Shown here in pieces: positions 10,801 to 56,436 of a stretch of 64,000 bases of DNA (its first letter is position 1; every line of letters starts with the position of its first letter). The position numbers and the translations under genes were made by a program. A model generated the notes under the pieces. The model was not told where the DNA came from and did not search any database. It worked only from the letters and a program-made list of their open reading frames with translations. The stretch is from a virus, in IMG/VR virus record IMGVR_UViG_3300045988_100580, positions 17,594-81,593 of that record; one strand, given 5' to 3'.

Positions 10801-13800
10801 TCTTACTGCGAGAGAAAAAGATGTGTATGATAAATACAAACAAGATTTTGATGATTATGTATCGTCTTTAGGTGATAGTCCTGTTAATCTCATAAAATCA
10901 TTATCTGAGAAGGCTGATAGGCTTACAAGTCCGAGATCAGTATATGAGGAAAATAAAGCTATTATTGATATGGCTAAGTCTAATTTGGAGCCAGATCAAA
11001 GAAAGGAGCTTGATGATGCTATTTCTTCGTATGTTGATATAATGAACAGACGGGACAAAGGAGAGAAAGTTGACGAAGATAAGCTTGCTGATTCGGTGTT
11101 TACCATAGAAGATCTTGGCCAGGTTGGAAACATCACAGATCTCCTTCCTTATATCGAGCAAAACAGGATTATTGACAAAGGTCGTATTTCCGAATCTACG
11201 TTAAGTGATTTCGGGGAGGATGATGCTAACATAGATTCTCTTGTAAATGAGTTAGATGAATCCGATAATACGCCTGGAGCTAACATAGATAGCGCCCAGA
11301 ATCCAGAGACGTTGATGGTTAGAAGAATATCCAACGATGGCAACGAAAGGTATGAAATTGCAGGTCTTAGAGCCGATAAATTTATATCTTCTATAAAATC
11401 ATTGGTTCCTATTCAAATAAGCTCTGAAACGAACGCTAATGACACTAAAAGGTATTCTCTTAATATAGGTGGAGAAACGGCTACTATAATTGAATTGCCT
11501 TATCATGCGAGATGGTCTATAGACAAAGAATCGGCTCGTGTTCTTAACCGTTACACAGACGTGTCTATTCAGGACGTGGGTAATTCCTATTCTTTGGTTT
11601 ATAAGCGTCTTGATTCAGATGAATTGGTTCCGTACAGAACAGGTGTCGGATTCGGAGAGAATGAGGTAGATAAAATAGATCAGGAAGCATTATCTTCTTT
11701 GAAAAAAGGAGATAAGGTTAATCTCGAAATAGATGTAAATGATACCTATAATCAGTCTCTTTTTGCCGAATACAATGACGCTGTTCAGTCCGGCGATAAA
11801 AAAAGAATAGAATCTGCTGAGAATAAACTGGTATCCAATATGGTTATCAAGGTCATGAGTGGGAACAGATTCGTTTCTGTTGTAAAAGCTGATACAGGAG
11901 GCATAGATGGTATAAGTAAAATAAGAAGAACGGCTTTTAACAAGTGGAAGAAGGACGCCGGCCGGTCGGCTACCATCGGCGTCGGCACGCATGTTGTTGC
12001 CCAGACCCTTCCCGGAAGACCGGTGTTTAACATGAAGGTGAACGGTCAAGGATATGGCCAGGTAGAAAATCTCCCTATTACCGAAAAAGGTGCTGAAAAA
12101 GTATCTGATGTCGGATATGTATTAAATGGCAAAGTCGTGCTTAAGAACGGATCTAAATACACAGGCTTCCCATTTGCTTATTCTATATTAAATGACAAGG
12201 GGAATAATTACAAAAATGTAAGAGTTCCGGTAGTCGTCATCAAAGGTAAAAACGGTCTTAATTATCTTTTCCCAGTTAGCCTACGTTCTGTGGAATCAGA
12301 GGAAGGGCGGAAATGGATGTCTTTTATAGATATGCTGCTTGAATCCGGTGATTCTGAATTGCTACAGATGGGTCAAGATGATATACAAGATCTTAATGCG
12401 TATCTAACCAAGTTAGGTCTTGATCCGGCTTCGTATCAAGTATCGTATTTGAATCCTATTTCAGGTCTTAGAAAAGCTCGTGAGGCTATAGAAGAATTAT
12501 CTACAGTTCCTGATGTTGTTAAGTGGGTAGAAGATGGAAGTAGGAGTGTGAAAGACATTGTGACGTCTGAAGTAGAATCTGGAATAGATTTCGAAGGTGA
12601 GATGTTTGTTGCTCCTAAGATCAGGATTCAGTTTGGTAAATCATCTTCCAGACCTAAATCACTTATAGAGGATGATCTTCCTTTCTCTGATGAGGGTAAG
12701 ACCGTTACTTCTAAAGAAGACGTGGATGTTTATGAAGAGGAAATGCCAGAGGAAGGGGCTGTCCGGGAGACTCAGCCGGCGCCATTAGCTCAGCCGACTC
12801 CTGCGGCACAAGCTGCGCGGTCTTTACCTGGCAAGAAGCGTACCTCCAGGAAAAACTTCTCTCTTATGTTAAACGAAATAGAATCTCATATAGAAAAAGA
12901 AGGATTGCCGTCTTATGCTAATATTTTTGATTTTATAGCAAGGAAGATTGTAGGAGGTGATTTGAGGTTTCTTCGTGAGAGAGGTAACCCTAAAAGCCTT
13001 AAGGAAGAAATGGGATTAGAACCTAAAGGAACAGTAGGTGATAAAATATCCACTCCTTCCAGTAAAGGTGGTAAGACCTTAGAAGAATACGTTTCTTGGC
13101 TTCGTTCTCAAACAGATCAGGTGGTGGTTGATTATGTTGGGCCAAGATCTGACGAACAAATTATATCAGAGTTGAAAAACTTTTTGAAATATATTAATTT
13201 TGTTCCAAGCAAGGCTTTGAATTATTCTCTTAGAGTCAATGGCATGGATACCCTAAAAGAATATGGCACAAAAGAGGAAGTAGAAAAAATGGAATCTGAT
13301 ATCAATAGTTTGGTTTCTAAAGTTTTGCCTACGGTGGATAATAAAACTGTAGAAGATGTTTCTACTGCAATAAAATCAAACAACTTGCCTGCCATATGGG
13401 AGCCCGTGGAAAGCCTTGATATGACAAACGAGGAAAAAATAGAGTTTTTGAATAACGTAGCAGATTTCCTTAGCGGCATACCAGAGTATGATGCTGTCGT
13501 GGAGTCTATAGAGTCAGAATCAGATAATATTTTAAATGATGGAAAAGAAGGAAGTGCAGAAGGCGGTGCAGTACGCACTGAGGAAGATGGCGATAAAAAG
13601 GGAGATGGAGAAGGCAAAGGACAATCCAGAACAAATGTCGAAGTTGAAAGAAATGTCGAATTACCTGGATCTGAAGAAGGAAGAGTAGATAACTATAGGA
13701 AGAACGGAGATAAGTTCTCTGACATTGCTGAAGTTACTTTATGGCTACTTAGAAGGGCTGCCGGCATAACCTCTATCCCGGAAGGAGAAGAGGTTTATGT

Positions 13801-14464
13801 AGAGGGAGATGAGGTTAATAGTATTATGACCGATATGGAATCAAGGTATGGTATAGACACCATCAATCACTCGCATACGACTAAGGCTATAAGGGACCTT
13901 AACGGCGTATCAGGTTATAAAGTAGAATACGGCTTAACCTTTTTGACATACGATCCTTTTATTAGAATATCCAATCTAAGGAAAGGATCTAAGGCTGCGA
14001 AAGACGAACCTCGTATATCCGAAGAGTCGCTTACTCACATATCAAGGGTGACAACCCCTTATTTCCTGTACGGCGGCGATGAAGCATATACATCTGTTCC
14101 GGCTAAGGTAGAACCTATACCGGAGAAGATAATGGGTCGTAATGGCATTAAATTTGGTATGAGTGTAGTCGAGTTAACCAAATTAGGGTACAAAAAAGCT
14201 GGTGGAAACTGGATATATAAATTCTATATGAACTCAGGTGTGTATGATTTGTATAATATCAGTACCGGTGAAGCGTTTAGGGCAAAACCGGATCTTGGAG
14301 TTAAGATAAGTTCCAGCGCATTCATCCGTTCTTTATCTCAATCTGGTAGGAAAATACAAAATATGATTAGTAATATGAGCCAGGAAGAGATAGATAGGAA
14401 TAAGAATCTTGTAGAAGGTTCTGATAATTCGGATTCGATAAATGAGTTAAATAAGGAGTGTTAA
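7823..14464 (+). CDS. Giant protein, 2213 aa; candidate virion-packaged RNA polymerase or cargo protein (hypothesis only)
   Basis: 6.6-kb uninterrupted ORF. No catalytic motif identified by eye. Confidence 0.6.
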   Translation: MADNNIDRYNPAAKTTYEDVARQRKLAEEENYTPATLPETTTPLVPNYMPGEGVYAQPKFPDYASRIAAAEYEEPYIAKEISNSYSEALARNSYRGATPAPPPLNPYGPKVSIRESHQMGNDGVWRTKYPNYIPGINNEDYYARRQSGWSKFWNGVGKFALKSALYGAQGVVSLPDKLINMASEGSYKAALNTNMDKFVGDLDQQIDMLLPHYYKKEVEDYNFGQKLFKDTGNFLWNDVLGNGMSFTVGAMISAYMTGGLGVGSLGNIGAKLGGRIGAKLAARQAANRGIGSLKSVFNDYVRKGVATGRNVGEAAKTMTLLATSAGFESSVEANSFMKQSESDFKDYYRKIYGRDPNAEEMAVFRNSNADVGSAIFAANMGIVGLSNWLLFGKYIGLGGKAIPGLEKKLNKHLFGLGTEVAKPGEMAIKITNPNIGQKIAGNVFNIMKRPVSEGLWEEGSQGAVQNTAEEYVKSRYDNVAMNGAVDVLDAISEGFKKQYTSKEGWTEIGIGAIIGSLFGMREGFFGVKEYSNSQILLERQVNEYNKASSNLNTAALNTLKKSMSLGPQVRSDAQSMTGKELDDAMFEKMSIDNQMGTLEDSAENFRQMVDMMPISEIAEANGISLEEAKKYKDSIIDNYNNRLSDFRSAQSFAEDLIGDDSKIEFRKYVARNAFLGLQSESRMKDIASVIETLSGQPRVAYALNTFSRLSDRARERAMAIRGIRSRIEELESEIEDLATRPRNVEGKDPQAESIQRKTKELESLRTNYNNSLSELSTLIGKEFSIEELVSKTESVLSSPLSPISSQDVIEAYDTLVAFDDYFNVKSRQEKKFTAKDKAMRSLVNEYRRSLMDYRNMNNFLSKMLDKRFLAEENRGFSKALSSLWSTPYKGDDKVPDFAEPNKVGEYDTDEVVDQAVSEGKISEDEAWTIKAFMHALDRVREDRMKETEDDIKESPLTESVSDEDYEAAMDNPIMVPVVRQSIIDKLYTGNADLLTAREKDVYDKYKQDFDDYVSSLGDSPVNLIKSLSEKADRLTSPRSVYEENKAIIDMAKSNLEPDQRKELDDAISSYVDIMNRRDKGEKVDEDKLADSVFTIEDLGQVGNITDLLPYIEQNRIIDKGRISESTLSDFGEDDANIDSLVNELDESDNTPGANIDSAQNPETLMVRRISNDGNERYEIAGLRADKFISSIKSLVPIQISSETNANDTKRYSLNIGGETATIIELPYHARWSIDKESARVLNRYTDVSIQDVGNSYSLVYKRLDSDELVPYRTGVGFGENEVDKIDQEALSSLKKGDKVNLEIDVNDTYNQSLFAEYNDAVQSGDKKRIESAENKLVSNMVIKVMSGNRFVSVVKADTGGIDGISKIRRTAFNKWKKDAGRSATIGVGTHVVAQTLPGRPVFNMKVNGQGYGQVENLPITEKGAEKVSDVGYVLNGKVVLKNGSKYTGFPFAYSILNDKGNNYKNVRVPVVVIKGKNGLNYLFPVSLRSVESEEGRKWMSFIDMLLESGDSELLQMGQDDIQDLNAYLTKLGLDPASYQVSYLNPISGLRKAREAIEELSTVPDVVKWVEDGSRSVKDIVTSEVESGIDFEGEMFVAPKIRIQFGKSSSRPKSLIEDDLPFSDEGKTVTSKEDVDVYEEEMPEEGAVRETQPAPLAQPTPAAQAARSLPGKKRTSRKNFSLMLNEIESHIEKEGLPSYANIFDFIARKIVGGDLRFLRERGNPKSLKEEMGLEPKGTVGDKISTPSSKGGKTLEEYVSWLRSQTDQVVVDYVGPRSDEQIISELKNFLKYINFVPSKALNYSLRVNGMDTLKEYGTKEEVEKMESDINSLVSKVLPTVDNKTVEDVSTAIKSNNLPAIWEPVESLDMTNEEKIEFLNNVADFLSGIPEYDAVVESIESESDNILNDGKEGSAEGGAVRTEEDGDKKGDGEGKGQSRTNVEVERNVELPGSEEGRVDNYRKNGDKFSDIAEVTLWLLRRAAGITSIPEGEEVYVEGDEVNSIMTDMESRYGIDTINHSHTTKAIRDLNGVSGYKVEYGLTFLTYDPFIRISNLRKGSKAAKDEPRISEESLTHISRVTTPYFLYGGDEAYTSVPAKVEPIPEKIMGRNGIKFGMSVVELTKLGYKKAGGNWIYKFYMNSGVYDLYNISTGEAFRAKPDLGVKISSSAFIRSLSQSGRKIQNMISNMSQEEIDRNKNLVEGSDNSDSINELNKEC

Positions 14465-17352: not shown

Positions 17353-17788
17353 CTTATATATGCACGTATATCAATAACATACAAGAAAAGTTAGATTTTC
17401 ATTGTTTATGAATTATTTTTGTTAAGTTTGCAATATTAGTTTCAGGAAGGGATTATGGAAATAAGGAAAAAGTAAGAACCGAACGTAACTAATAACAGTA
17501 GGAAATGAGAATCAGTACCATCAAACGTAACAACAGCATTCATCTTATGTATAAAAACATTATGAATGATTTAGGTCAATTAAGAACTGTAGTTTCAAAA
17601 TCCTATATTTATAATCTGATACAAAATCAAACCGGATTAAGTATCATAACTATATCCCATGTACTTAACCATACCAAAGAACAGGATACGGATTCTTTGT
17701 GAAAAGCATGTATTTTCATACATTTGTTCGTTCTTTAGTTTTAGTGGGGAAAAGTTTTTCATGGTATTTTAGTTTAGATTAGTTGAGG

Positions 17789-22644: not shown

Positions 22645-25600
22645 ATGACATCAACGTGTATTATTAAAAGAGATAATAAAAATAAAGTTGTTTCTGTCTC
22701 TACCAGATCAGGGGACAGGTCTATGTTGTTTGATAAAATAGCATCTATTCCTCTTATGGAGAATAGGGAACGGGCTACTACTGTTTTTAAAACCGTATTT
22801 TCTAATAAGTTCTTAAAGGCTTTTGGTGACTGGAGAAGGAATGTGCCTATCAACAAACAGGCTTACAATAAGGTAAAATCTAACATCGGCCTTATTCCAG
22901 AGACCTATAGAGAAAGGGTGCTGGATAAGGCTTCTAAGATGAGCAACCCTATTCTTGTGTCGAAATCAGATGCACCTTATGGGATTCAAGAATCAGGCTT
23001 TGGATTTTATAGCCAAGATCTGGGTGATAATATTATGTTGGTGGATGCTATGGTTCCGTCAAGTATCTCCGTGCCGGAAGAACCAGGAATAGACTCAGGG
23101 CAGTATCTACAAGATGCTATATCTTCGGACTTCACTCCCGTATCTATGGTACAGGATAATGATGTTAATTATATGGTTATAAAAGACGGTCTTAAGATAT
23201 TTAGTCCAGAAGAGCTACCAGAAACAGATTCTAATCCTGTGGGTGTAACGTATCAGACTGGAGAACCTCGTTTGTTTTTTATGAATGATCGTAATCAATT
23301 ATTTGAAGATTACGGAGAAGCTCTTCGCTCTGGCGGGAATGATATCAGAATAGGATTCTTATCAGGCATCGTTCAAGAATCTACCGTGGATGGAGTGGCA
23401 GACATTACTTACAAGGCTGGAAAGTATGTTCTTAATAATCCCAAGTCTTTTATACCGGTCATGACCGCTTCTGCTTCTACTTCTTTATCAACAAAAGGCG
23501 GTATAATTAACTACCTTATAAAGAAAGGTCTTTTGTCCGGATCCAAGATATTCGATCCGGAAACAAGAAGCTATTATATTACAGGAGAAGGACATACAGG
23601 ACAAATTAGACTTTTCAATTCAGCCTTATCCTACACTGAGCTCCGTAATCATTTTGGTTCCGATGTTTCCATGAACGACCAGGGTATGATAACCATAAAT
23701 TCATTGGATAATAGTAAGGTAACTATGAGACTCGCCACCGGAGGAACAGAAAGAGTTAGCAAGGAGCAGATAAAGAGCGATCTTAAGTCTGGAAGATACA
23801 ATGAATTGGATGCTAAATACGATCACTTTGATGCGCTTGTAGTTTCATTTATATTAGAAGACAATGATCTTTATGCTGATACTAAAGCTAAGATAGTATC
23901 GGATTATAGCCAAGAGGAACGTAATCAACGAAATTCTATTGTTGAGATACTGAAAACGCTGGGCGTTAGTGTCGTTGGCATGACCGATTATATAGAGAAG
24001 TACCAAACTAAATACGGACACGAACCTTCTGCTAAGGCATTGGCGGATATTGCCAATAACGTAATAGCAGTCGGTGAAGATGCTACTTTGTCTGACTTAG
24101 TAGAAGAAACAGCACACTTTCTCGTAGAGGCGTACAGAGATCAGAATGCTGTTGAATCTGTTTTGCAAGATGTAGAAGGCACTGAAGAATGGAATCAGTA
24201 TGCAGGTCAGTATTATAATACATACGGTAAGGTATATGAAGGCTCTGAACTTGATAATGCTGTTAGGAGAGAAATTCTTGGAAAGATCCTCGCCAGGGAG
24301 ATGCAGACCGGCACAGCACAGGCGCCGGTAGAGCCCACCTCCTTCCTGGGGCGCGTCCGGCAGCTTCTCTCTGGAATTGTAAACTGGCTTAAATCAGCTT
24401 TATCAACCCAAAGACAGGATTTGAATAACGTTATTAAAAATATTCGTGATCTTGCCATTACTGACATAGATAAAGGATTTGACACCTCTCTGTTAAAGGA
24501 TAATGACTTTACATTATACTCCCTTTCTTCTATGAACAAGAACAAGTTTCTTGAGTCCAAGATCAGATCACTAAGAAAAACATTAAGAGACTTACGTCAG
24601 ATAAGCTCTGATAGGGCTGTAACTACGTCTATGACCCTTGCTCAGCTTAAGACCATAGAAGATAAGATAAATAAGGTAGAGACCGAAATAGACAAGAATG
24701 AGATGGCGGCTGCCATGAACAGCATGATCTCCACAGCCGAAGCTCAGGTCAGATACTTAAGTAATGTGGTGAACGCCATCCTTCATGGTGATACCAAAGA
24801 TGGTAAGCTTCACTTCAATACCAATGATCGAAAGAACGTAGATATTATCAACAATCAGGTTCTTCCGATCATGAACGATCTTCGAGGATATATCCGTAAC
24901 AGAAGTACCGAATTTGATGAACGTGAAAAGCAGGATTATACAAATAGGATCAATACCGTCATTGCCGACATCAATGGTATTCAGTCTGATATTAAATCAG
25001 TACAAGACCTTGATGAAAGCACGTTGCTTGATAAGTTAATGAACGAACTTCATGTGCCGGCAGATAAGGTAAAGAGAGTAAAAGAATTTTTTGACAAGGT
25101 TCAACACGATGTTTCTTGGATAAGTAGGTGGTTCGGTATATTAGAGCATTCTTCCAGTCCGTTCAATAACGCTCTTGGAGCTATGATTGCCAAAGACAAT
25201 TACAATGCGATGGTGAATGCCCAGCCCGCCATATCTGACTTCCTGGCATATGCTAAAAAGCATGGTTTTAACAAATCTGAATTTGAAAAACTGCTTCAGA
25301 AAGTAGACGGCAAAACTTCTAATTACCTTCGTAGTGCTCTTGATATGGCTAAATACGATCGTAATAAGAAGTTGGCGCAGATGCGAGCGTTTGCGACTGC
25401 CATGAACATAGAAATATCAGAAGAAGAAATCAATGATGTGGTTGACAATAATCGTAATTACGTATTTAAAAGAGAAGTAGTTGACAAGGACGGAAATACG
25501 GTTACTGAAAACGCTAAATTTAAGCCCTCATCTGACAGGGTTAATACTGATATTTTTACCATCGAGCAGGAAAAGATCTATACAGAACAGATGGAGAAGT

Positions 25601-28600
25601 GGGATGCTGAAAATTCAGAACTGGAATTTAGTGAAAGTTATGCCACAAGAATGGAATCCATATACAAAAAGGCCGAAGAAGAATTAGGGCATCCGGTTTC
25701 TCAAACAACCAAAGAATACCTTAATGCTCTTTCTCGGCAGAAGCGGATATTGAGGCAGCCTTTTATTGATAGCAATGGTAATTTTGATGAGGTTGCTTAC
25801 TATAAGAGTAGTAACTACGAAGAAGAAGGACTGCTTCGTAAACAACGTAAGGAAGCAGCTTCAGAATACATATATGTAGGAACCAGGAGAGTGGAAAAAA
25901 CCGGCGACCAACTTAAGATGGCCAAAGAAATACAAGCTATAAATGAAGTTTGGAGAAAGGAATCAAATAATGTCACTAATGTCGTATCAGAATCGTTTTT
26001 GCAAAAATTGAGAACGATTCAGAACGAGTCAGGAGGAGAAGCTGCGCTGAAGACACTTATGTTGGGGGGGCACCTGTCATTCAACGATCGGTTTTGGAAT
26101 GACGTAGAATCAGAACAATCGGCGCGTACCGAATCAAATAACAAGGCTTCGTATCTTAAAATGGCACAAGACATCATTAGTTCTACGACAAGTGATAGAG
26201 ATGCAACTGACGTGGATTCGATTGTAAAAGATATAGAAAAAAATAAGGCTATTATAAAGGAAATAATCGGAAACAATCGCGATGTGGCTGATATCGGAGA
26301 AATTAATGAAGCGACATTTACCTCATCTGAAAGAGATGCTTTTAGGGCCGCATCTGAAGCTATTGAAGCCGATTACGCTATCTTAATAGATTATGCTAAG
26401 ATGGTGGGTCTTGAAGATATTGATAAGTACCTTACTAAAAGCAGTAAGGCTGAAAACGAAGTAAATCAGTCTTATTTAAATGCTCTTGCTGACTCCAAGG
26501 AAGTGGAATGGAAGTTCGTACAACGTCATACTACGGCGAAGAAAGCAAAAAGGATTCAAGCCTTAAGGGATAAGTTATTCAAAGCTGCTGATAACCGGTA
26601 TCTGTTTACCGTATCTGAAACCAACTACTTGTCAGAAAAGCTTGGAATAAGCAAAGAATTAGACGGTAGAGATTTTAGGAATGCCGTCAATGCTAAAATG
26701 GCCAGCTTGTTTTTAAATAACACAAGAGAATCAGGTATAGAAGAGGCTAATGCTATTGTTAATGAATTTGCCAGGAGCCAGGTCTTTTCATACTATAAAC
26801 GCATGGCGCCTACCGGATATGCGGCTATGATCGACAAAATTGGTCGAGGTGAGATAGATGTGGCGCAGATGGTTAAGGACGTACAAAACGGTACATCCAC
26901 CCAAGATTATGGCATGGACATATCGTACCTGTCTTTCGACCCTGCAAGGGCATGGGTGGCTGAATCTGAAGCCGAAAATAGCGGTCGTAATCCTGATTAT
27001 GTAAAAGATCATGGGTATGGTCATCGCATGCCTAAGAAAAGCCTGTATCGTGATGAATCGTATCTCAATGACTTTGGTATCAAATATGATGCTGATGGTA
27101 ATGAGGTCGCTACTAAAAACGTAGAGCAGTGGAATATGATTCAAAAACTCAAGGAAATAAAAAGACAATCCCTTGATCTATACAAAGAGCAGAGTCCCAA
27201 TTTGTATGCTATTCCACAGATATCAAAACAAGACATAGAACGTATGGAAGGATTGGGTATTAACTTCAAAAATACGGTTCGTAATTTTGTATCAGATCTG
27301 TGCCTGGACAGAGTAGACGATTCTCTATATGGTAAGACCAGGCAAGGGGAAGTATATGACCCGGAAGACAGACTTAGGTCTATACCTAAATACTACATAT
27401 ATGAATTGGAGAACCAAGATGATGTATCTCACGATTTTGGCTACTCTTATTCGATGCTTATGATGCAGTCATCGTTATACAACGAAAAGCAGAAGTCTAT
27501 AGAGCTTGCCCAAGGACTGGAGCAGATGTTGCTGAACAAACAATTTGAGGGCGGTAAGAAGGCTGAAGCAACCCAAGCATATCAGATGTTTAGGGACTTC
27601 TTCAACGATCATTATTATGGCATTAGGATGAACACCAAAAAACTTACGGTGAACATCGGAGGATATGCGGTAGACCTTACAAGAATTATGATGGCTGTTG
27701 AAAGATTTATGTCGGTTATGAACTTGGCACTGTCTCCGTTTGTGGCAGCTACCGGCGCCCTGACAGGTCATATCAACCTCATCATGGAATCTGCCGTAGG
27801 ACAGTATATAAGCAAAGACTCCCTTAAATACGCATCGGCTGAGTTTTCACGTCTTGCGCCATCTTGTATAGCAGAAACCGGAGACATAGATAGGAAAAGC
27901 AAATTATATGTCATAGGTGAGAGAATGGGGATATTCAATATCCGAAATCGTATGTATGGTGCCGGATACAATAGAGCGGCCAGGACCTTAATGCGTTCGC
28001 CTATGTATGCTTTTATGGAAATCCTGAACTACCCTCTTAATCCGCAGGTTATGATTGCTACTATGGACAATGTTCGTTATTACAAAGGCCGGTTCTACAC
28101 GTTCCAAGATTTCAAGATGGAAAAAGAACGCAATAAAGAACAGAGTACCATAAAAAGAGAATGGAACGCATTAAAAGATCGTACTTTATGGAGTATGGTA
28201 GACGTCGTGGATGGAAAGGTGGTTGTAAAGCCGGGATCGGGTGTTACTGTTGAGGAAGTTGAAACCCAGATGGCTATAACCAGGAATCAAGTCCGTAGCT
28301 TGTCGCAGATATGTAACGGATCTTTGAATGAAGAAAACCGAACTGCCGCATCGCGCAACTGGATAGCCAGGTTCATGACCGCCCACCGAGGCTGGCTGGT
28401 GCTGGCAGCTCAACGTCTGTGGAAAAGACGTGGCTTCAATTTCCAAACAATGCAAGAAGAGGAAGGGTTGTCAATTACGTTAAAGAATATGATAGCCAAA
28501 ACATTTAGCTTAGCTTCCGAGTCTGGTATGAAAAACATCATAGATGCCTGGAACGAAAATAAAGATAATATGAATGAGGTAGAGAAAACCAATATAAAAC

Positions 28601-29067
28601 GTCTTAGTGTCTATGCCGGCACGTTCCTTATCATGCAAGCCGTATCCATGCTTCTTGCCGGATGGCGTGATGATGATGAAAACGAAGAAAGTTGGCTTAC
28701 TCAATTTGGATCCTATGTCGGATTCAGAACCATAAACGAAATAGCTTCACAGATGCCGTTTATTATGGAGCTTAACGTTGTAGATATCATTAACGACCCG
28801 TTTGTCATGGGGCGGAAGTTGAAGGATCTTACTGATCTTAGGAATTACTCACTTGATAAAGTAACATCCGGCACATACAAAGGAGAGTTTAAGTTATTTA
28901 GGCAACTCGCCAAACAGACGTTTATCAAACAATGGTATAACATCAAGACGCCGGAAGACATAGCGCGCGCCTATAATTGGTGGCAGCAGACAAACAACAA
29001 GTCAATGATGTTCTTCATCGGCGCCACTCCTGATTCGGAAGGAGACGATGATGTTAGTTACAAATAG
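22645..29067 (+). CDS. Giant protein, 2140 aa; candidate virion-packaged RNAP subunit or ejected cargo protein (hypothesis only)
   Basis: 6.4-kb uninterrupted ORF with its own promoter box and upstream terminators. Confidence 0.6.
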   Translation: MTSTCIIKRDNKNKVVSVSTRSGDRSMLFDKIASIPLMENRERATTVFKTVFSNKFLKAFGDWRRNVPINKQAYNKVKSNIGLIPETYRERVLDKASKMSNPILVSKSDAPYGIQESGFGFYSQDLGDNIMLVDAMVPSSISVPEEPGIDSGQYLQDAISSDFTPVSMVQDNDVNYMVIKDGLKIFSPEELPETDSNPVGVTYQTGEPRLFFMNDRNQLFEDYGEALRSGGNDIRIGFLSGIVQESTVDGVADITYKAGKYVLNNPKSFIPVMTASASTSLSTKGGIINYLIKKGLLSGSKIFDPETRSYYITGEGHTGQIRLFNSALSYTELRNHFGSDVSMNDQGMITINSLDNSKVTMRLATGGTERVSKEQIKSDLKSGRYNELDAKYDHFDALVVSFILEDNDLYADTKAKIVSDYSQEERNQRNSIVEILKTLGVSVVGMTDYIEKYQTKYGHEPSAKALADIANNVIAVGEDATLSDLVEETAHFLVEAYRDQNAVESVLQDVEGTEEWNQYAGQYYNTYGKVYEGSELDNAVRREILGKILAREMQTGTAQAPVEPTSFLGRVRQLLSGIVNWLKSALSTQRQDLNNVIKNIRDLAITDIDKGFDTSLLKDNDFTLYSLSSMNKNKFLESKIRSLRKTLRDLRQISSDRAVTTSMTLAQLKTIEDKINKVETEIDKNEMAAAMNSMISTAEAQVRYLSNVVNAILHGDTKDGKLHFNTNDRKNVDIINNQVLPIMNDLRGYIRNRSTEFDEREKQDYTNRINTVIADINGIQSDIKSVQDLDESTLLDKLMNELHVPADKVKRVKEFFDKVQHDVSWISRWFGILEHSSSPFNNALGAMIAKDNYNAMVNAQPAISDFLAYAKKHGFNKSEFEKLLQKVDGKTSNYLRSALDMAKYDRNKKLAQMRAFATAMNIEISEEEINDVVDNNRNYVFKREVVDKDGNTVTENAKFKPSSDRVNTDIFTIEQEKIYTEQMEKWDAENSELEFSESYATRMESIYKKAEEELGHPVSQTTKEYLNALSRQKRILRQPFIDSNGNFDEVAYYKSSNYEEEGLLRKQRKEAASEYIYVGTRRVEKTGDQLKMAKEIQAINEVWRKESNNVTNVVSESFLQKLRTIQNESGGEAALKTLMLGGHLSFNDRFWNDVESEQSARTESNNKASYLKMAQDIISSTTSDRDATDVDSIVKDIEKNKAIIKEIIGNNRDVADIGEINEATFTSSERDAFRAASEAIEADYAILIDYAKMVGLEDIDKYLTKSSKAENEVNQSYLNALADSKEVEWKFVQRHTTAKKAKRIQALRDKLFKAADNRYLFTVSETNYLSEKLGISKELDGRDFRNAVNAKMASLFLNNTRESGIEEANAIVNEFARSQVFSYYKRMAPTGYAAMIDKIGRGEIDVAQMVKDVQNGTSTQDYGMDISYLSFDPARAWVAESEAENSGRNPDYVKDHGYGHRMPKKSLYRDESYLNDFGIKYDADGNEVATKNVEQWNMIQKLKEIKRQSLDLYKEQSPNLYAIPQISKQDIERMEGLGINFKNTVRNFVSDLCLDRVDDSLYGKTRQGEVYDPEDRLRSIPKYYIYELENQDDVSHDFGYSYSMLMMQSSLYNEKQKSIELAQGLEQMLLNKQFEGGKKAEATQAYQMFRDFFNDHYYGIRMNTKKLTVNIGGYAVDLTRIMMAVERFMSVMNLALSPFVAATGALTGHINLIMESAVGQYISKDSLKYASAEFSRLAPSCIAETGDIDRKSKLYVIGERMGIFNIRNRMYGAGYNRAARTLMRSPMYAFMEILNYPLNPQVMIATMDNVRYYKGRFYTFQDFKMEKERNKEQSTIKREWNALKDRTLWSMVDVVDGKVVVKPGSGVTVEEVETQMAITRNQVRSLSQICNGSLNEENRTAASRNWIARFMTAHRGWLVLAAQRLWKRRGFNFQTMQEEEGLSITLKNMIAKTFSLASESGMKNIIDAWNENKDNMNEVEKTNIKRLSVYAGTFLIMQAVSMLLAGWRDDDENEESWLTQFGSYVGFRTINEIASQMPFIMELNVVDIINDPFVMGRKLKDLTDLRNYSLDKVTSGTYKGEFKLFRQLAKQTFIKQWYNIKTPEDIARAYNWWQQTNNKSMMFFIGATPDSEGDDDVSYK

Positions 29068-45709: not shown

Positions 45710-46700
45710 GATATTTCTCTTTTACCTTGTTATTAATTATCAAATCTGCCACATCATCTCCGTCTCCTACATTTTCAACATTTTGAAGATAGTCTGATAC
45801 TTTTATCCTTGACTTCATCATCATCCCATCTATCTTTTTACTCCATGTCTCAAATGCTTGTCCTTTGTCCGGAAAAGCTACAATCTTTCTATCTTTTAAA
45901 ACATCTATCACTTCCGGCCTTAGATTCTGCAACCCACCGGTAGCTACAAATAACTCATCCGGTTTATTCACAGCGCATATAATAGCCGTCTTTTCTGATT
46001 CCACCAAATTAACCACCTTATCCGGATACTGGCTTAGAAGATGCTCTCCGAACAGGCATTGTCTAAACAAGAAGTCTCTTGCATGCAACGAGTGATAAAA
46101 CATAACATGAGGCCGCTCATTGTCACCGTCTTTTTCCTTCACTCTTTTTACATCAATCTCATTCCCCTGGCTGTCGGTCTTTATATAAAAGTCCATGATC
46201 TTGCCGGTTCTACATACAAAGTCCTTATCTATCTGCCAGAATATACAACATCCTTTCCATCCCCATAAGTCCATTGTTCCGACATGATATCTTCTAAATA
46301 CGTCAGATACCCTTTCTTTTCCCCATAGAGACGATAAAAATCTAAATACGGTGTTTCTGTCGTCTGGAACCACAGTCCTCTCAAACTCGCTAAAAGGTAT
46401 GTAATTTACAACGTCAGGATTTACAGGAGGACGATAAGCTCTTATACACTTGTTTCCCGAAATCCAAAGATCTTTGTCGCCCACATCCTTGCCGGTAGGC
46501 CGTTTATCATAACCGCAAGTCCGTTCATGATCGCATCTTCCGAACTCGTTTCCAACAACCTGACCGGTCGCCACATCAATATAAGGAGTAAGGCACCGGC
46601 TTTTTCCGCAAGCCGGGCAGGTCAGCTTTAGTCGGCTCCTGCCAGGCCTGCGGTCAAGTTGAAACCGGGGTACGTTTTCGTATCTTCTAAAATCAAGCAT
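45687..46700 (-). CDS. DNA primase-like protein (N-terminal Cys4 zinc ribbon plus C-terminal TOPRIM-like region)
   Basis: CPACGK…CDHERTC zinc ribbon. ESEKTAI…FPDKGQ in a TOPRIM-like arrangement. Confidence 0.55.
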   Translation of the reverse strand: MLDFRRYENVPRFQLDRRPGRSRLKLTCPACGKSRCLTPYIDVATGQVVGNEFGRCDHERTCGYDKRPTGKDVGDKDLWISGNKCIRAYRPPVNPDVVNYIPFSEFERTVVPDDRNTVFRFLSSLWGKERVSDVFRRYHVGTMDLWGWKGCCIFWQIDKDFVCRTGKIMDFYIKTDSQGNEIDVKRVKEKDGDNERPHVMFYHSLHARDFLFRQCLFGEHLLSQYPDKVVNLVESEKTAIICAVNKPDELFVATGGLQNLRPEVIDVLKDRKIVAFPDKGQAFETWSKKIDGMMMKSRIKVSDYLQNVENVGDGDDVADLIINNKVKEKYHEPGCLY

Positions 46701-46709
46701 AATGCTTAT

Positions 46710-48029
46710 TTATATTACAAATCTTTTAGACATTTCCTCAGCAATATCATATACGACAATATGATCCTCTTCATTGTAAGGCTTATTGATATTCAGCACT
46801 CCCTTTCTCACTTTGAACCTCTTGTCTTTTCTGATATGATTCAACATCCCTTGTTGGAATACACAGTCTGCCTTCTCCATAGCAGCATTTTTATCAGACC
46901 ATTCTTTTAGCGTATAACCTTTACTGTTCGTGCTTTTTGGAGAAAAATTCATAATACGTGCATCAATTCCGTACCAGTTTTTAACCATTCTCCTTTCAGC
47001 CTCCAATTGAAAAGCATGTTCATTTCGTATGTCACCTGATTTAAAATCTAAGATAACAATCTCTTCTTTCTCCACTTCTCTCACTTCCTTCTTCGGATCT
47101 CCTTTTTTGAACTGCCCCGTAGCCCTTTGATACACGGCTCCAAAATAACCTTCTTCTTTGTACTTGAATGTCATTTTAACCATCGCATCTATCGGCGTAG
47201 CTACCAAATAATCTTCTAATGATAATATTCTTTCAATCATCATCGGCTTAACCTTATACTCCGAACAAAATTTAGCAAACTTCATAACCCTAACAATCAT
47301 ATCGTCAAGATCATCTATGCTACCAAAGAATTTGTCAAGATTCTTTTTTGATATTTTAAGCTTGCCTTCTTGCACTGTCTTAACTATAAAACTTCGATTT
47401 AAGACCATATCTCTACCTGTCAAGTATAATCCGTATAGGTAGTGCATGATCGTTCCTTTATCTGCATCATATTCTGATACTTCTTCCGGATTGCGACCAA
47501 TCATCCTCATCTCCTGTCTCCATTCTTGAAGAGCCGTTTTGTCATCTACGAATCCGTCTCTGATCATGGTTGTTACCGAGGCGTATATCTTGGCTGTCCC
47601 ATCGTCCATCTTTCTTACATAAAAACGATTACCGTCTAATGTCAATCTTACGAATTTGGGAGTCTCGATCTTCTTTAACTCATCACAGATATAAAACGGC
47701 TCTAACGTTTCCTGATTTTCTGTAAACGGATTCGAATCTTCTTCTCCAGGGTTAGGAGCGGCTTCCTCCGCCGGAGCTTCCGGTTCCTCCTTCTGGGCCT
47801 GCTCTGGCTCAGAAGCCGGCTCTTCAACTACTGGAACCTGTCCGCCTCTTTCTGCTATGTCTTTGTTTTTTATTAAAGACATAACTTCCTTTCTCAATTG
47901 CTCCGGTGTTTGATTAGGATCTGACACCGACATCACAACATCGTTCATTCTAAACAACGTATTTCCTTTTCCCTCCACCATAGGTACAAACCCTAAATCT
48001 GTCAATATTTTTATTTTCTGTTCTATCAT
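46710..48029 (-). CDS. Putative second PD-(D/E)XK-family nuclease/exonuclease with an acidic low-complexity linker
   Basis: ATPIDAMVK … EIVILDFKSG (D … D-x-K arrangement). N-terminal domain, E/P/A-rich linker, nuclease-like C-terminal domain. Confidence 0.4.
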   Translation of the reverse strand: MIEQKIKILTDLGFVPMVEGKGNTLFRMNDVVMSVSDPNQTPEQLRKEVMSLIKNKDIAERGGQVPVVEEPASEPEQAQKEEPEAPAEEAAPNPGEEDSNPFTENQETLEPFYICDELKKIETPKFVRLTLDGNRFYVRKMDDGTAKIYASVTTMIRDGFVDDKTALQEWRQEMRMIGRNPEEVSEYDADKGTIMHYLYGLYLTGRDMVLNRSFIVKTVQEGKLKISKKNLDKFFGSIDDLDDMIVRVMKFAKFCSEYKVKPMMIERILSLEDYLVATPIDAMVKMTFKYKEEGYFGAVYQRATGQFKKGDPKKEVREVEKEEIVILDFKSGDIRNEHAFQLEAERRMVKNWYGIDARIMNFSPKSTNSKGYTLKEWSDKNAAMEKADCVFQQGMLNHIRKDKRFKVRKGVLNINKPYNEEDHIVVYDIAEEMSKRFVI

Positions 48030-50719: not shown

Positions 50720-51223
50720 CTAACCTCCAATAAAATCATCGGGAGTTATATATCCTACTGATTCCATACGGTCTATAATCTCATTCGCATTCATTTCTGA
50801 ACCGTTCCATTCAAGTATGATTTCATTTCCTGAAGCCATGCTCAAATTAGGCTCATTATCTCTAAATCCTGAGAAAGCAAGATGTTCCCAAATGGATTGC
50901 AGTGCAAGATCCGCTTCGTTTTGTTTGTTTTCTGCTTTCTTTATGGCATTTCTTAATTTTTTATTCATTATCACCCCCCTTTCTTCTTCGCATGGGAGCA
51001 AGTCCTCGATGTATGCCCAGCGCATATAATGATCCTTTTCTGAAAGTTCTTCCCATGGCTTGCTCTTGGTTAAATAGACCAAATCATAAGCACCGTCAAT
51101 ATCCTCCACAATGAGCAGTTTCCCTTTGTCTGGCTTTTCTCTTGCATCGTGCCACACGCTGTTAATGCGCCATTCTGCACCAGCTTTAAAAAGAGGAACA
51201 GCAAATTCTATATCTTGTTTCAT
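50720..51223 (-). CDS. Hypothetical protein, 167 aa
   Basis: ORF track. Confidence 0.5.
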   Translation of the reverse strand: MKQDIEFAVPLFKAGAEWRINSVWHDAREKPDKGKLLIVEDIDGAYDLVYLTKSKPWEELSEKDHYMRWAYIEDLLPCEEERGVIMNKKLRNAIKKAENKQNEADLALQSIWEHLAFSGFRDNEPNLSMASGNEIILEWNGSEMNANEIIDRMESVGYITPDDFIGG

Positions 51224-52707: not shown

Positions 52708-53091
52708 TCATTCTACATCAAAAAGTTGATCTAACACCAATAATTCTGCATCCATATCTTCATCTTTCGGGAAACGAACTTTTATATTTCCAAACTTAGA
52801 TGTCTTAAACAAGATGTAGGGGTTCATGTCTTCGGCGGTCACCGGCTTATATTCCTTAACTTCCGACATCTTGAGATACCAGTCACCTATTTTTACAAAC
52901 CCAGAAAAGATAGAACACAGATGCGCTTTTACAGACTGTATCTCCTTTTTATCTTTGAAAGGTATAATTTCGTCCTTTCCCCTTATCCTGATTGACAAGA
53001 AAGGACGAATGTTATCTGTTTCATTTTGAAATTTGAAGCCTGTTATGGCTTGCTTGGGGATTCTTCTTCCCATTAATATAAAATAGCTCAT
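52708..53091 (-). CDS. Hypothetical protein, 127 aa
   Basis: ORF track. Confidence 0.45.
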   Translation of the reverse strand: MSYFILMGRRIPKQAITGFKFQNETDNIRPFLSIRIRGKDEIIPFKDKKEIQSVKAHLCSIFSGFVKIGDWYLKMSEVKEYKPVTAEDMNPYILFKTSKFGNIKVRFPKDEDMDAELLVLDQLFDVE

Positions 53092-53402
53092 TGTGATAAG
53101 TGATTTTGTTTTATATCAGGTAAGTAATTTGTAATAACATCAAGTGATATCCACAACTCTGGCTCTATGCTGTTTTTTATTCTATCACTGAAAAGAGAAT
53201 TATCATCACAATCACAATGAGAGATTGTGACATAACAATCTTGATAATCCCACCAATGAGCCGATTTAAAATCGTCCCCTCCATTCCAGAATCCTATTCT
53301 TATACCTCTTGGGTTGAAATCTTCATCTATCCAACTTGGGTGATAAGCCAACACTTCTTCTCCCTCTGAAGGTTTTTCCTCTTTGAATTTCTTCCAGTTC
53401 AT
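53088..53402 (-). CDS. DUF551-like small protein
   Basis: W-rich pattern WKKFKEEKP…VLAYHPSW…GFWNGG…AHWWDY…VTISH. Confidence 0.35.
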   Translation of the reverse strand: MNWKKFKEEKPSEGEEVLAYHPSWIDEDFNPRGIRIGFWNGGDDFKSAHWWDYQDCYVTISHCDCDDNSLFSDRIKNSIEPELWISLDVITNYLPDIKQNHLSQ

Positions 53403-53413
53403 CTCACCTTTAA

Positions 53414-54211
53414 TTAATTAGACACAAATATACAAGTTTTACTAAGATGCCCTTCTGTCATCTCTATGAAATTCACACAATCTAATTTGCTTAATTTGTA
53501 AATCAATGCCGGATTGTGTACTATGGCTATAATTTGCGTTTGTGGTTTATGGAATGACAATACATTATAAATTTGCATTATATTGTCAATGTCAAGATTC
53601 CTGTCTGGCTCATCCATGAGAACCGTGTATTCAAAACTGCTTTTTGTTAATGTTATGCGATTTCTTTTATAATACTTCAACAGATTATCAATTCTTTTAA
53701 TCCAAAACGCATTTGATTTTTTCTTGTATTCTACAAGATCTTGTATTGGAAACGTATAATCCTTTTGACCGAACATTAAATTGAAAAGTGATTCCAATGA
53801 TAACACCACTTTCTCTCCATAAGATCTTCTAATATTATTCACATACAAATCTAAATTGCTGATGTTTTTCAATACACCATCTCGATTCATCTCCGCCGAC
53901 GGTAATAAACGGAATACTTTCCCTGCATAATCGGATGATATGTCAATCCCATCAAGAACCTTGTCATCATCATCAAATATAGGTGGAAAATCCAGTGCCT
54001 CGATCGGCATTTCAGAGCACATAGACTTCTCACACAACATATACATTGATATGATATTAAGTAAGGTCGATTTTCCACTACCGTTTTTACCTATAATTAC
54101 ATTCACTCCTGGCTTGAAAATAAATTCTCTGCCATTTTCAAATGTTTCTATGTCCGAAACATATTTAAATGGAGTTTTCGTATTGTCTTTTATTTTTACT
54201 GATGTTATCAT
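53414..54211 (-). CDS. Small ABC-type (AAA_21-like) ATPase, 265 aa
   Basis: Walker A GKNGSGKST, Walker B/D-loop LMDEPDRNLD, H-loop IVHNP. Confidence 0.65.
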   Translation of the reverse strand: MITSVKIKDNTKTPFKYVSDIETFENGREFIFKPGVNVIIGKNGSGKSTLLNIISMYMLCEKSMCSEMPIEALDFPPIFDDDDKVLDGIDISSDYAGKVFRLLPSAEMNRDGVLKNISNLDLYVNNIRRSYGEKVVLSLESLFNLMFGQKDYTFPIQDLVEYKKKSNAFWIKRIDNLLKYYKRNRITLTKSSFEYTVLMDEPDRNLDIDNIMQIYNVLSFHKPQTQIIAIVHNPALIYKLSKLDCVNFIEMTEGHLSKTCIFVSN

Positions 54212-54222
54212 TGTAATCCTTT

Positions 54223-55077
54223 TTAAAAATCAATTACCGTCCGAACCATGTCTCCGATGTGCTTGTTGCCGGTGCCCGTGAGGCCACTGGAGAAGACCAC
54301 GTACCACGCGACGGCCTGGCTGCTCTCAGTGCTGGACCAATACCACGTCGAGGAGAGGGGAGATGCCGAAACATAAGCGAATGCTTTGTTTAGTTCGTCC
54401 ATATAATGGGCCATTAAATTTAATTGACCAAGAGATGGTATATACTCGCCATCTTCCAGCAGATTTCTCAATTTTGGATTTCTGGCTACAAGGCGTTCCG
54501 TATTGCCGCGTCCGTCAATGTCAAACAGCGCATCACATTCACGTTCGTAATATGTCCCACTTCCGGATTCTTCACGGCTATCATCGTCAAGCAATTGTAC
54601 GATATCATGCTCCGTCAGTGAGATTGCAAATGACATGTATCTGTGCTTCAACCCGATGTATCGTACACAATCTTTGGAGTTATCGCCGGTAAACGGCTCT
54701 GCATGTCCGTCTTCGTAGATTATATACAGTCCGTCAGTTGACTCTTTCTTATCCTCTTCGGATGGTACTCTGTTTTCACATGTACATTTCTCACTTTTGG
54801 ATCTTACGATTATATTCAATTCATTTAATACATGATTCCTGATGACGCTCTCGCACGCTCTTCTTACAAAATCATGATCTCTTTGTTTGAGTTCATCATT
54901 CACCATGCATCTGATCCAGTTTTCTATCTGGTTGTCACCTCCATATGTATTAACCATGTACCGTTTTACGTGTTTCTCCAATAACGGCTCTATGTTTTTG
55001 ATTATATCTTCTTTGGTAAGGTGAAGTTCATTTAATATACAGTTCCTTACTGCCCTGTATTCTTTACTTGTGCTCAT
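54223..55077 (-). CDS. DUF1566 (Lcl C-terminal domain) protein
   Basis: C-terminal WYWSSTESSQAVAWYVVFSSGLTGTGNKHIGDMVRTVIDF matches the DUF1566 signature. Confidence 0.55.
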   Translation of the reverse strand: MSTSKEYRAVRNCILNELHLTKEDIIKNIEPLLEKHVKRYMVNTYGGDNQIENWIRCMVNDELKQRDHDFVRRACESVIRNHVLNELNIIVRSKSEKCTCENRVPSEEDKKESTDGLYIIYEDGHAEPFTGDNSKDCVRYIGLKHRYMSFAISLTEHDIVQLLDDDSREESGSGTYYERECDALFDIDGRGNTERLVARNPKLRNLLEDGEYIPSLGQLNLMAHYMDELNKAFAYVSASPLSSTWYWSSTESSQAVAWYVVFSSGLTGTGNKHIGDMVRTVIDF

Positions 55078-55099
55078 AATATTCTGTTATTTTTTTTAA

Positions 55100-55762
55100 T
55101 TAATCCCATCCTCCATCAGCATACAAAGAAACATCTTCATCTTCTACGTTTACACCTTTAATAGCCTGTAGAAGTTTTTTCTTTGTCTCCCGGCACATAT
55201 TGTAACCATATCCTTTATACCGATATGAGCGCTCCCATGTACTTACTGGAAAAGGGATATTTTCGTCAATAACCAGCCTCTTCATATGAAGATGTTCGAA
55301 GAATTTCTCATGATAGAGTAGTTTGTACTCGTATGCTACTATACTTGCAGATGAGAATGGAAAATAATCATCTTCTTTTTCTTCGTATTTGGGCTCCTTA
55401 TAGTAAGCCGTTTTTGTCACAGTAAAATCGAAGCTCCTAAGAATCTCTTTCGGCTTTCCAAACTCTGACTCTATGAACTCTATCCATACCTTTTCTCCCT
55501 CTTTCTGGAACGCACATACCTTCTCATTTCTGTACTTAAATCTCCACCCTTCTTTTTGGTGTTTTTCATCATTGAACAAATTGACAGCTTCCTGAAAATC
55601 GCTTTCGCTTTCAAAGAATACATCAATATCTTTCACTTTTTCCTCAGAAAGAATATTCTTAAAACATCCACCAGCTATGAACCCCTTGTGACCTTCCATA
55701 TACTTGTCAAGCCATCTTATTTGCCAGAAATTATCTGGAGTATCTATTACAAAATTATTCAT
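55100..55762 (-). CDS. Pol-beta-superfamily nucleotidyltransferase-like protein
   Basis: GFIAGGCFKNILSEEKVKDIDVFF fits the hG[GS]x9-13DhDh NTase motif, with downstream acidic residues (IEFIESE, SFDFT). Confidence 0.4.
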   Translation of the reverse strand: MNNFVIDTPDNFWQIRWLDKYMEGHKGFIAGGCFKNILSEEKVKDIDVFFESESDFQEAVNLFNDEKHQKEGWRFKYRNEKVCAFQKEGEKVWIEFIESEFGKPKEILRSFDFTVTKTAYYKEPKYEEKEDDYFPFSSASIVAYEYKLLYHEKFFEHLHMKRLVIDENIPFPVSTWERSYRYKGYGYNMCRETKKKLLQAIKGVNVEDEDVSLYADGGWD

Positions 55763-55780: not shown

Positions 55781-56035
55781 TTACCAAGCGAGATAAAAAT
55801 TCCGCTTCACAATAATACAATGAGTGTAATTACTCAGGTCGATTCCGTTGTCCGTAAATGCATCCAGGACCCGTTTTTCCACGTATTTGAGTTTTACTGT
55901 TATCCCCTTCTTAAACACTTCTATTAACTTCTCATTGCACTCAATAGGTCCAATAAGACAGTATCTATTCGAGGGACTGTCTGATATACAATATGTCTGA
56001 CATCCTAACATGTTGCTTAAAATATTCTCATACAT
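55781..56035 (-). CDS. Hypothetical protein, 84 aa
   Basis: ORF track. Confidence 0.4.
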   Translation of the reverse strand: MYENILSNMLGCQTYCISDSPSNRYCLIGPIECNEKLIEVFKKGITVKLKYVEKRVLDAFTDNGIDLSNYTHCIIVKRNFYLAW

Positions 56036-56160
56036 ATTTTCTATATTTTACAATTCTTAGCTATGTTACTTAATTCAGCGGTCATTATCAAATCTGATAG
56101 TGACCGCCCCGCATGCACATTTTTGAATAAATTTTACTTTTAATAATTTTCTCATTAGAG

Positions 56161-56436
56161 TTATCCTCTATTTACTTTTTTCTTTATTTCTTCCGCGATC
56201 TCTTCTAATGTTGTTGGAGATAAATAATCATCTACCCTCAACTCTCTTACATAACCTAAGCAATCCAGACCCTTAGCGTCTATTTCCTGCCTCTCTTCGT
56301 CGACCCATCTTAAAGTGCCATTTTCTCCACATTCCGGGCATTTATCTGCCCCACATGGAAGAAGCATTTGCGCCCCACATAAGACACATCTCACCCAGTC
56401 TCCATGCTGCACCCCTTCGTATGTTATTGTTTTCAT
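56161..56436 (-). CDS. Zinc-ribbon protein, 91 aa (CVLCG…CPECG)
   Basis: Two CxxC pairs. Confidence 0.45.
   Translation of the reverse strand: MKTITYEGVQHGDWVRCVLCGAQMLLPCGADKCPECGENGTLRWVDEERQEIDAKGLDCLGYVRELRVDDYLSPTTLEEIAEEIKKKVNRG

Follow-up and report, generated by a model that had tools for sequence, protein, structure and literature searches.

A Gad2-related nucleotidyltransferase and a self-contained ABC ATPase in a probably mosaic accessory stretch of an epsilon crAss-like gut phage

Positions 53088-55762 of a 64,000-nucleotide stretch of viral DNA (IMG/VR record IMGVR_UViG_3300045988_100580, positions 17,594 to 81,593; hereafter the window, meaning the whole stretch that was analysed) hold four small genes, among them one for a nucleotidyltransferase (NTase) and one for an ATPase of the ATP-binding cassette (ABC) type. 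The original prediction, made from the letters of the window only, suggested that the four could be a single inter-phage exclusion module or an anti-defence system. In our reading, which we hold with some reserve, the region is instead probably a mosaic early accessory stretch of four independently inherited genes, namely a Gad2-family NTase, a self-contained ATPase, a lectin-tipped binder and an orphan. The one-module proposal found no support: the genes are gained and lost separately, and the ATPase has no conserved neighbour. Its anti-defence part survives for one gene, the Gad2-family NTase, and not for the cluster as a unit.

The window DNA is 93% identical to that of phage csAssE-Sib (OR575929, 151 kb, human gut), which has been placed among the epsilon crAss-like phages (PMC11054128), and by sequence the window belongs to a human-gut epsilon crAss-like phage. 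The four open reading frames (ORFs) are co-directional on the minus strand, with gaps of 11-22 nt between them:

53088-53402, minus strand: gene for a 104-residue protein, a lineage-specific orphan
53414-54211, minus strand: gene for a 265-residue stand-alone ABC-type ATPase of an apparently phage-restricted family
54223-55077, minus strand: gene for a 284-residue protein with an unassigned N-terminal part and a C-terminal Lcl_C/DUF1566-like domain
55100-55762, minus strand: gene for a 220-residue NTase, a short homologue of the N-terminal NTase domain of Gad2 (PF26128, phrog_4400)

Among close relatives, the pairwise ratio of nonsynonymous to synonymous substitutions (dN/dS) is 0.09 for the 104-residue protein, 0.13 for the ATPase, 0.41 for the 284-residue protein and 0.09 for the NTase. 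Since these ratios are low and three of the four genes have hundreds of homologues, the ORFs are real genes under purifying selection.

The case for separate inheritance lies in the gene content of 72 close relatives with adequate flanks, whose ATPase is 92-97% identical. All four genes occur together in only 16 of them; the NTase, 284-residue and ATPase genes are present without the 104-residue gene in 33, the 284-residue and ATPase genes alone in 8, these two with the 104-residue gene in 7, the ATPase alone in 6, and the ATPase with the 104-residue gene in 2. The distance from NTase to ATPase takes several values. Where the 284-residue gene is "absent", a 25-residue scar or a C-terminal fragment of 101-145 residues lies directly upstream of an intact ATPase gene; these are deletions that spared the ATPase. 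The ATPase thus persists where the NTase and most of the 284-residue gene have been removed. Further afield, neighbours clustered across 15 diverse ATPase loci had nothing in common with the window beyond the ATPase itself, and no neighbour is common to the 15. A Gad2-like gene was found in the flanks of none of 19 distant ATPase loci, and an ATPase of this family near none of three distant Gad2-like NTase loci, so that outside this lineage the two families do not travel together in the loci compared.

Against this pattern, a single module in which ATPase and NTase cooperate has some appeal. The genes are tightly packed and read in one direction, both folds recur in defence and counter-defence systems, and the NTase, 284-residue and ATPase genes are kept together in 49 of the 72 close relatives. 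PADLOC matched the ATPase at a generic P-loop level only, and the three remaining proteins not at all. Given the gene losses, the unshared neighbours and the separate distribution of the two families, we regard one cooperating module as very improbable. The outcome that the original prediction had named as its refutation did not arise: profile searches assigned the ATPase to no replication or packaging role, and the NTase motif was supported.

A short nucleotidyltransferase of the Gad2 family

SPbeta-like phages carry Gad2 (Gabija anti-defence 2), the second of their anti-Gabija proteins, which is 400 residues long and for which AlphaFold predicts an NTase domain (10.1101/2023.05.01.538930). 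Bacillus phage SPbetaL7 needs Gad2 to overcome Gabija, and a homologue from a Brevibacillus laterosporus prophage cancels Gabija when co-expressed (10.1101/2023.05.01.538930). We took two Gad2 sequences, those of SPbetaL7 and Brevibacillus, from the supplement of that report, which was also the only one that a literature search on the mechanism of Gad2 returned. By BLASTP, the window NTase matches the verified Brevibacillus Gad2 with E 1e-11 (residues 26-202 on residues 26-177) and the SPbetaL7 Gad2 with E 3e-7 (residues 22-191 on residues 22-164); hhalign of the NTase against Gad2 gives 97% probability and E 9e-11.

The catalytic residues agree with this relationship:

55622-55672, minus strand: NTase catalytic motif GG(31-32)-x11-K44-D45-x-D47, invariant in 34 family members and aligned with Gad2 IAGG...NDxD

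Residues G31, G32, K44, D45, D47, F111, D112, F113 and T114 are invariant in the 34 family members, and the GG...DxD motif together with a third acidic residue, D112 of the FDFT motif, aligns with IAGG...NDxD and FDFT of Gad2. The Pol-beta-type NTase label that had been given to this protein is thus upheld by an invariant catalytic motif and by homology to the Gad2 family. Among PHROGs, the protein falls in phrog_4400 (E 4.7e-66), with a weak match to a "nucleotidyltransferase" PHROG. The copy of Pfam that we used gave no match for it. Its homologues, however, are recorded under PF26128 in precomputed annotation, a family called "Gad2" by another tool, and the window NTase is assigned to PF26128 by way of these homologues. 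Profiles of defence-system NTases (CD-NTase/CBASS, AbiEii and MNT-type toxin-antitoxin) were not matched.

The window protein does not have the full-length architecture of about 400 residues: it is 220 residues long, and the alignments stop at Gad2 residue ~165-177. The short form is widespread: 139 GenBank phage records carry it, and the hosts of these phages include Streptococcus thermophilus, Bacillus, Listeria, Aeromonas, Vibrio, Maribacter and Bacteroides. The motifs and alignments make it most likely that the protein is an active ribonucleotidyl transferase of the Gad2 family that depends on Mg2+, and homology makes it a credible anti-defence candidate that consists of the catalytic domain only. 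It would act as Gad2 is thought to, neutralising a host nuclease-type defence such as Gabija or a similar system. The neutralisation would be enzymatic, by nucleotide transfer and not by binding and blocking, and would proceed without the C-terminal half of full-length Gad2.

A serious rival to this anti-defence reading is that the NTase modifies or repairs RNA ends, extending tRNA or other RNA by CCA, A or poly(A), and so either serves phage RNA metabolism or counters defences that cleave tRNA. The predicted model of the NTase does resemble the head and neck of class II CCA-adding enzymes, and RNA-repair genes are found elsewhere in csAssE-Sib. When class II tRNA nucleotidyltransferases were compared (CCA-adding, A-adding and bacterial poly(A) polymerase, e.g. 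3H37, 4WBY, 3AQL and 1MIV), however, the body and tail domains with which CCA-adding enzymes hold tRNA proved to be absent from the NTase, which has 220 residues against 372-517 in the matched enzymes. It has no Pfam match to PolyA_pol (PF01743) at E <= 0.1, and neither phmmer nor the family profile found any match among PDB sequences. The similarity to Gad2, in contrast, is visible by plain BLASTP. Since the CCA-type enzymes show no link at the sequence level, Gad2 is the closest characterised relative of the NTase, and we consider a role at RNA ends possible but doubtful.

A self-contained ABC ATPase

The 265-residue protein had been described as an ABC ATPase with Walker A, Walker B and H-loop motifs and without a fused effector, a description that our searches bear out in each part. 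It passes Pfam gathering scores for SMC_N (41.7 bits, cut-off 40), AAA_21 (41.3, cut-off 27) and AAA_23 (32.1, cut-off 27), and carries no recognised effector domain. Ten residues (G41, N43, G46, K47, S130, G132, D200, E201, H232 and N233) do not vary in 33 close and 55 diverse members, even where identity is 30-50%:

54065-54091, minus strand: Walker A, GKNGSGKST, residues 41-49; G41, N43, G46 and K47 invariant in 55 diverse members
53810-53824, minus strand: ABC signature-like SYGEK, residues 130-134; S130 and G132 invariant, at the N-terminus of model helix 131-148
53588-53626, minus strand: Walker B and D-loop, TVLMDEPDRNLDI, residues 196-208; D200 and E201 invariant, DEPDRNLD nearly invariant
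53516-53518, minus strand: H-loop histidine H232; H232 and N233 invariant in 55 members

The AlphaFold model is confident (predicted local distance difference test, pLDDT, 84; predicted template modelling score, pTM, 0.85), except at residues ~105-135, just before the signature helix.

An exhaustive HMMER search gathered the family into 185 clusters at 50% identity (E < 1e-30). Almost all members have 245-290 residues and align end to end, and the longest carry no additional Pfam domain, so that no relative with a fused domain came to light. PHROGs hold no family specific for this ATPase. Of the phages in GenBank, csAssE-Sib and one faecal fragment alone carry it; relatives also lie on viral contigs of 146-351 kb, and the best match in a viral structure library is a 279-residue "ABC transporter domain" protein of a Dickeya phage. 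Bacterial copies were sought in one genome per species for 185,579 species, and the counts are lower bounds. At least five full-length copies are in bacterial genome contigs among the matches listed. Four of these are on contigs of metagenome-assembled genomes (Bacteroidales, Prevotellaceae, Paludibacteraceae and Erysipelotrichaceae), two of them 122-147 kb long. The fifth lies on a 6.3-kb contig (L096) of the marine Vibrio olivae CECT 8064 assembly and encodes an ATPase 70% identical to the gut-phage protein; this looks like a contaminant or stray phage contig and not like a Vibrio gene. On these comparisons, the family appears to be a large, well-conserved set of self-contained ABC ATPases that is essentially confined to phages.

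Similarity searches favour the defence ATPases by a narrow margin only. In structure the protein comes closest to defence ATPases (PtuA), which outscore generic ABC domains by very little, and the family profile finds ABC-F, SMC, Rad50, EF3 and AriA among PDB sequences at similar E-values. Against PADLOC its best matches are mad3 (3.8e-17) and AriA (3.5e-13), the best stretches being mainly the P-loop region and the level that of P-loop proteins in general. All family members match PADLOC defence ATPases, with best E-values of 1e-10 to 1e-19, mostly around the P-loop; the profiles with the largest numbers of matching members are mad3, AriA, HEC-02A, AbiLi, LmuB, GajA and PtuA. No nuclease or effector of the kind found in Septu, PARIS, Gabija, OLD or Lamassu was found fused to the ATPase or beside it, judged from family sizes and from 15 loci. 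With its motifs intact, the ATPase would form an ATP-sandwich homodimer and cycle by hydrolysis. Because it has no dedicated phage partner, it would have to act on a host or nucleic-acid target, and as a tentative best guess it could interfere with, or mimic, the SMC/OLD-type ABC ATPases that it most resembles.

The ATPase might otherwise assist the phage in DNA replication, recombination or repair, as a minimal SMC/RecF/Rad50-like head clamping DNA upon ATP binding, and this we regard as possible but doubtful. The SMC_N score lies above the Pfam cut-off, and heads of SMC, Rad50 and UvrA are among the good structural and profile matches. The N-terminal β-strand of the protein, with a GxNGSGKST motif after it, is an arrangement that typifies the SMC-like clade. 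The gene also lies in the replication and early region, which in csAssE-Sib is a few kilobases from genes for a primase/helicase, a replication factor and NinG. However, the protein lacks any coiled-coil or DNA-binding insertion, partners of the Mre11/SbcD or RecO/R kind are missing from its vicinity, and the gene stands among variable accessory cassettes, outside the conserved replication block.

A bolder proposal is that the ATPase is a stripped-down mimic of the sensor ATPases PtuA, AriA, GajA and OLD, which it would poison or titrate through mixed, effector-less assemblies, and that together with the Gad2-like transferase and the hypervariable lectin-like binder it marks an island of anti-defence genes in epsilon crAss-like phages. 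A decoy or interference role of this kind is allowed by the slight preference for defence-type ABC ATPases, by the scarcity of the family in bacterial genomes and by the missing effector; we judge the proposal as a whole improbable, and a role in DNA transactions is at least as likely as one in interference. It is very hard to sustain that the phage uses the ATPase to shut out its competitors, by exclusion or abortive infection in the manner of P2 Old or prophage-encoded PARIS: the best PADLOC profiles are indeed defence ATPases (mad3, AriA, AbiLi, GajA and PtuA), and phage-encoded ABC-ATPase defences are known, but the known systems require a nuclease or effector, and none is fused or adjacent in any lineage.

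A conserved partner of the ATPase was looked for in the same 15 loci, where only two local neighbour families emerged, neither of them in the window cluster. The first is an unannotated protein of 195-225 residues, without a Pfam match, that recurs no more than a few kilobases from the ATPase at four distant loci (L007 1959-2636, L094 1972-2637, L098 5878-6540 and L100 8808-9395), and immediately downstream of it in L100. The second is a protein of ~106 residues, unrelated to the 104-residue protein of the window, that lies directly beside the ATPase in three of four loci (L177 4796-5113, L178 3605-3925, L179 5667-5990 and L180 3590-3925); these belong to large phages, of 146-351 kb where the contig is complete. 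In a further lineage (L002 4343-5991, also L003-L006), whose ATPase is 64% identical to that of the window, the gene directly follows two radical-SAM genes (203-226 and 343 residues), and a HicA toxin gene is nearby in some copies. In other distant lineages the ATPase stands among unrelated small genes.

The 284- and 104-residue proteins and their surroundings

The DUF1566 label of the 284-residue protein is carried by its homologues more than by the window copy. Lcl_C (PF07603), the present name of DUF1566, scores 21.2 bits on the window protein against a cut-off of 34.9 (E 3.8e-4), and the match is limited to the final 40 residues (profile positions 75-116 of 117). Of 30 homologues, 28 match Lcl_C at E <= 0.01, the best at 2.8e-7, and no other family was matched. 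Among PHROGs the protein belongs with phrog_4245 (E 7.8e-8). The gene varies far more than that of the ATPase, with 75-99% nucleotide identity among close relatives against 92-97% amino-acid identity of the adjacent ATPase, and the variation gathers at one end:

54226-54357, minus strand: hypervariable C-terminal tip of the 284-residue protein, residues 241-284

Variability is concentrated at residues 241-278, with a peak of column entropy at residues 261-280, and dN/dS is 1.19 over residues 236-284 but 0.33 elsewhere in the gene. Compared with csAssE-Sib, the tip is 97.8% identical and the whole gene only ~90%, a pattern that suggests shuffling of alleles by recombination. Because its lectin-like (DUF1566) tip is under diversifying selection, the protein is probably a binder of a variable ligand. 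The tip DNA is GC-rich and poor in A.

A hypervariable DUF1566-like end recalls the C-type-lectin-like/DUF1566 targets of diversity-generating retroelements (DGRs): the 284-residue protein ends in a DUF1566-like WSST...AW...G...VR motif, and its last ~45 residues are hypervariable among relatives. A DGR origin was nevertheless rejected. No template repeat for the tip is present in the window or within 5 kb in 80 relatives, and the tip sequence occurs only once in the complete csAssE-Sib genome, so no template copy exists there. The substitutions are not adenine-patterned; they also fall at third codon positions and are not confined to sites of adenine mutagenesis. csAssE-Sib does have an annotated DGR, at 45751-47816 (L095; outside the window), whose variable region lies in a putative tail-fibre gene and which also has a template repeat and a reverse transcriptase; this template bears no relation to the tip.

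The 104-residue protein had been labelled DUF551, a name that finds no backing: searches of Pfam (including DUF551, PF04448), PHROG, PADLOC and NCBIfam gave nothing at E <= 0.1. An iterative search with hidden Markov models over all the loci collected found close orthologues only and none outside csAssE-Sib-like phages. The gene is present in 25 of the 72 close relatives, and the protein is not similar to a 167-residue protein encoded at 50720-51223, despite a comparable W...KP...G motif. On this evidence it is a lineage-specific orphan.

The four genes are part of a long minus-strand run of small genes that begins near 30 kb, where the strand switch and the sign change of the GC skew both fall; the plus-strand half of the window contains two giant ORFs, at 7823-14464 (2213 residues) and 22645-29067 (2140 residues). 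In csAssE-Sib, the orthologues of the 104-residue protein, ATPase, 284-residue protein and NTase are annotated as "hypothetical", "AAA ATPase domain protein", "DUF3988 domain-containing protein" and "polyA polymerase", respectively. Near its left end, that genome also has genes for a polynucleotide kinase/3'-phosphatase and an NrnA-like phosphodiesterase, besides four tRNAs. Within the window, a tRNA scan found none, Rfam gave no match, a scan for sigma-70 promoters and terminators showed no excess over shuffled sequence, and a search for the motif TAnnTTTG was uninformative for promoters.

A 13-bp interrupted inverted repeat (GCGGUCAcUAUCA / UGAUAaUGACCGC) lies at 56077-56108 on the minus strand, in a 125-nt gap between the genes at 55781-56035 and 56161-56436 that has a folding z-score of -2.45. 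With no U-run after it, the repeat does not qualify as a canonical terminator; it could serve as an operator or RNA element where the transcription unit that contains the four genes begins. Public gene calls for many homologues are 70-120 residues longer than the window genes (311 against 220 residues; 388 against 265 residues), as if stops were read through. Recoding of stop codons was discarded as the cause, the standard code already giving ORF coverages of 93% and 84%, and the window bears no sign of stop-codon reassignment.

Significance and comparison with known systems

The crAss-like phages dominate the human gut virome, and the epsilon crAss-like phages are among its most abundant phage groups. 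To our knowledge, very little has been learned of how crAss-like phages cope with the immunity of Bacteroidales. A relative of Gad2 reduced to its catalytic domain is found in 139 GenBank phage records and in this crAss-like lineage, and for that reason the NTase domain alone may be an active anti-defence unit. If so, it would offer a minimal protein for working out the mechanism of Gad2. The ATPase family, with its few bacterial copies, is a concrete candidate for defence and counter-defence screens. More generally, the separate histories of the four genes warn against reading too much into gene adjacency in the mosaic early regions of phages.

Several points weigh against the reading that we favour. 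An anti-Gabija role for a short (~220-residue) Gad2-like protein is a prediction, and the ~220 C-terminal residues that the short form lacks could be indispensable to Gad2 for targeting. In Gad2 itself, the NTase role is likewise predicted, from a model. On solved structures, the profile scores of ABC-F, SMC and Rad50 equal that of AriA. The 11-22 nt spacing is compatible with co-transcription of the four genes and with functional cooperation within this lineage.

Among known systems, the ATPase is best compared with PtuA (of Septu and of retrons Ec83 and Eco7), AriA (PARIS) and the OLD-family proteins GajA and P2 Old. These have 375-630 residues against 265, and they contain a helical or coiled-coil insertion that the window ATPase lacks. 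Their nuclease partners (the HNH protein PtuB, AriB and Toprim domains) are neither fused nor adjacent to it, and whereas ATPases of the PtuA, AriA and GajA type lie in defence islands, the window protein is encoded by a phage. What it has in common with them in sequence is mainly the P-loop and Walker B regions. The NTase differs from Gad2 in length (220 against ~400 residues, with ~220 C-terminal residues of Gad2 lacking a counterpart), in an identity of 20-25%, and in host, presumably Bacteroidales for the window phage and Bacillota for Gad2. The two proteins nevertheless have a homologous N-terminal NTase domain with the GG...DxD and FDFT motifs common to both, and both are encoded by phages, in variable accessory loci.

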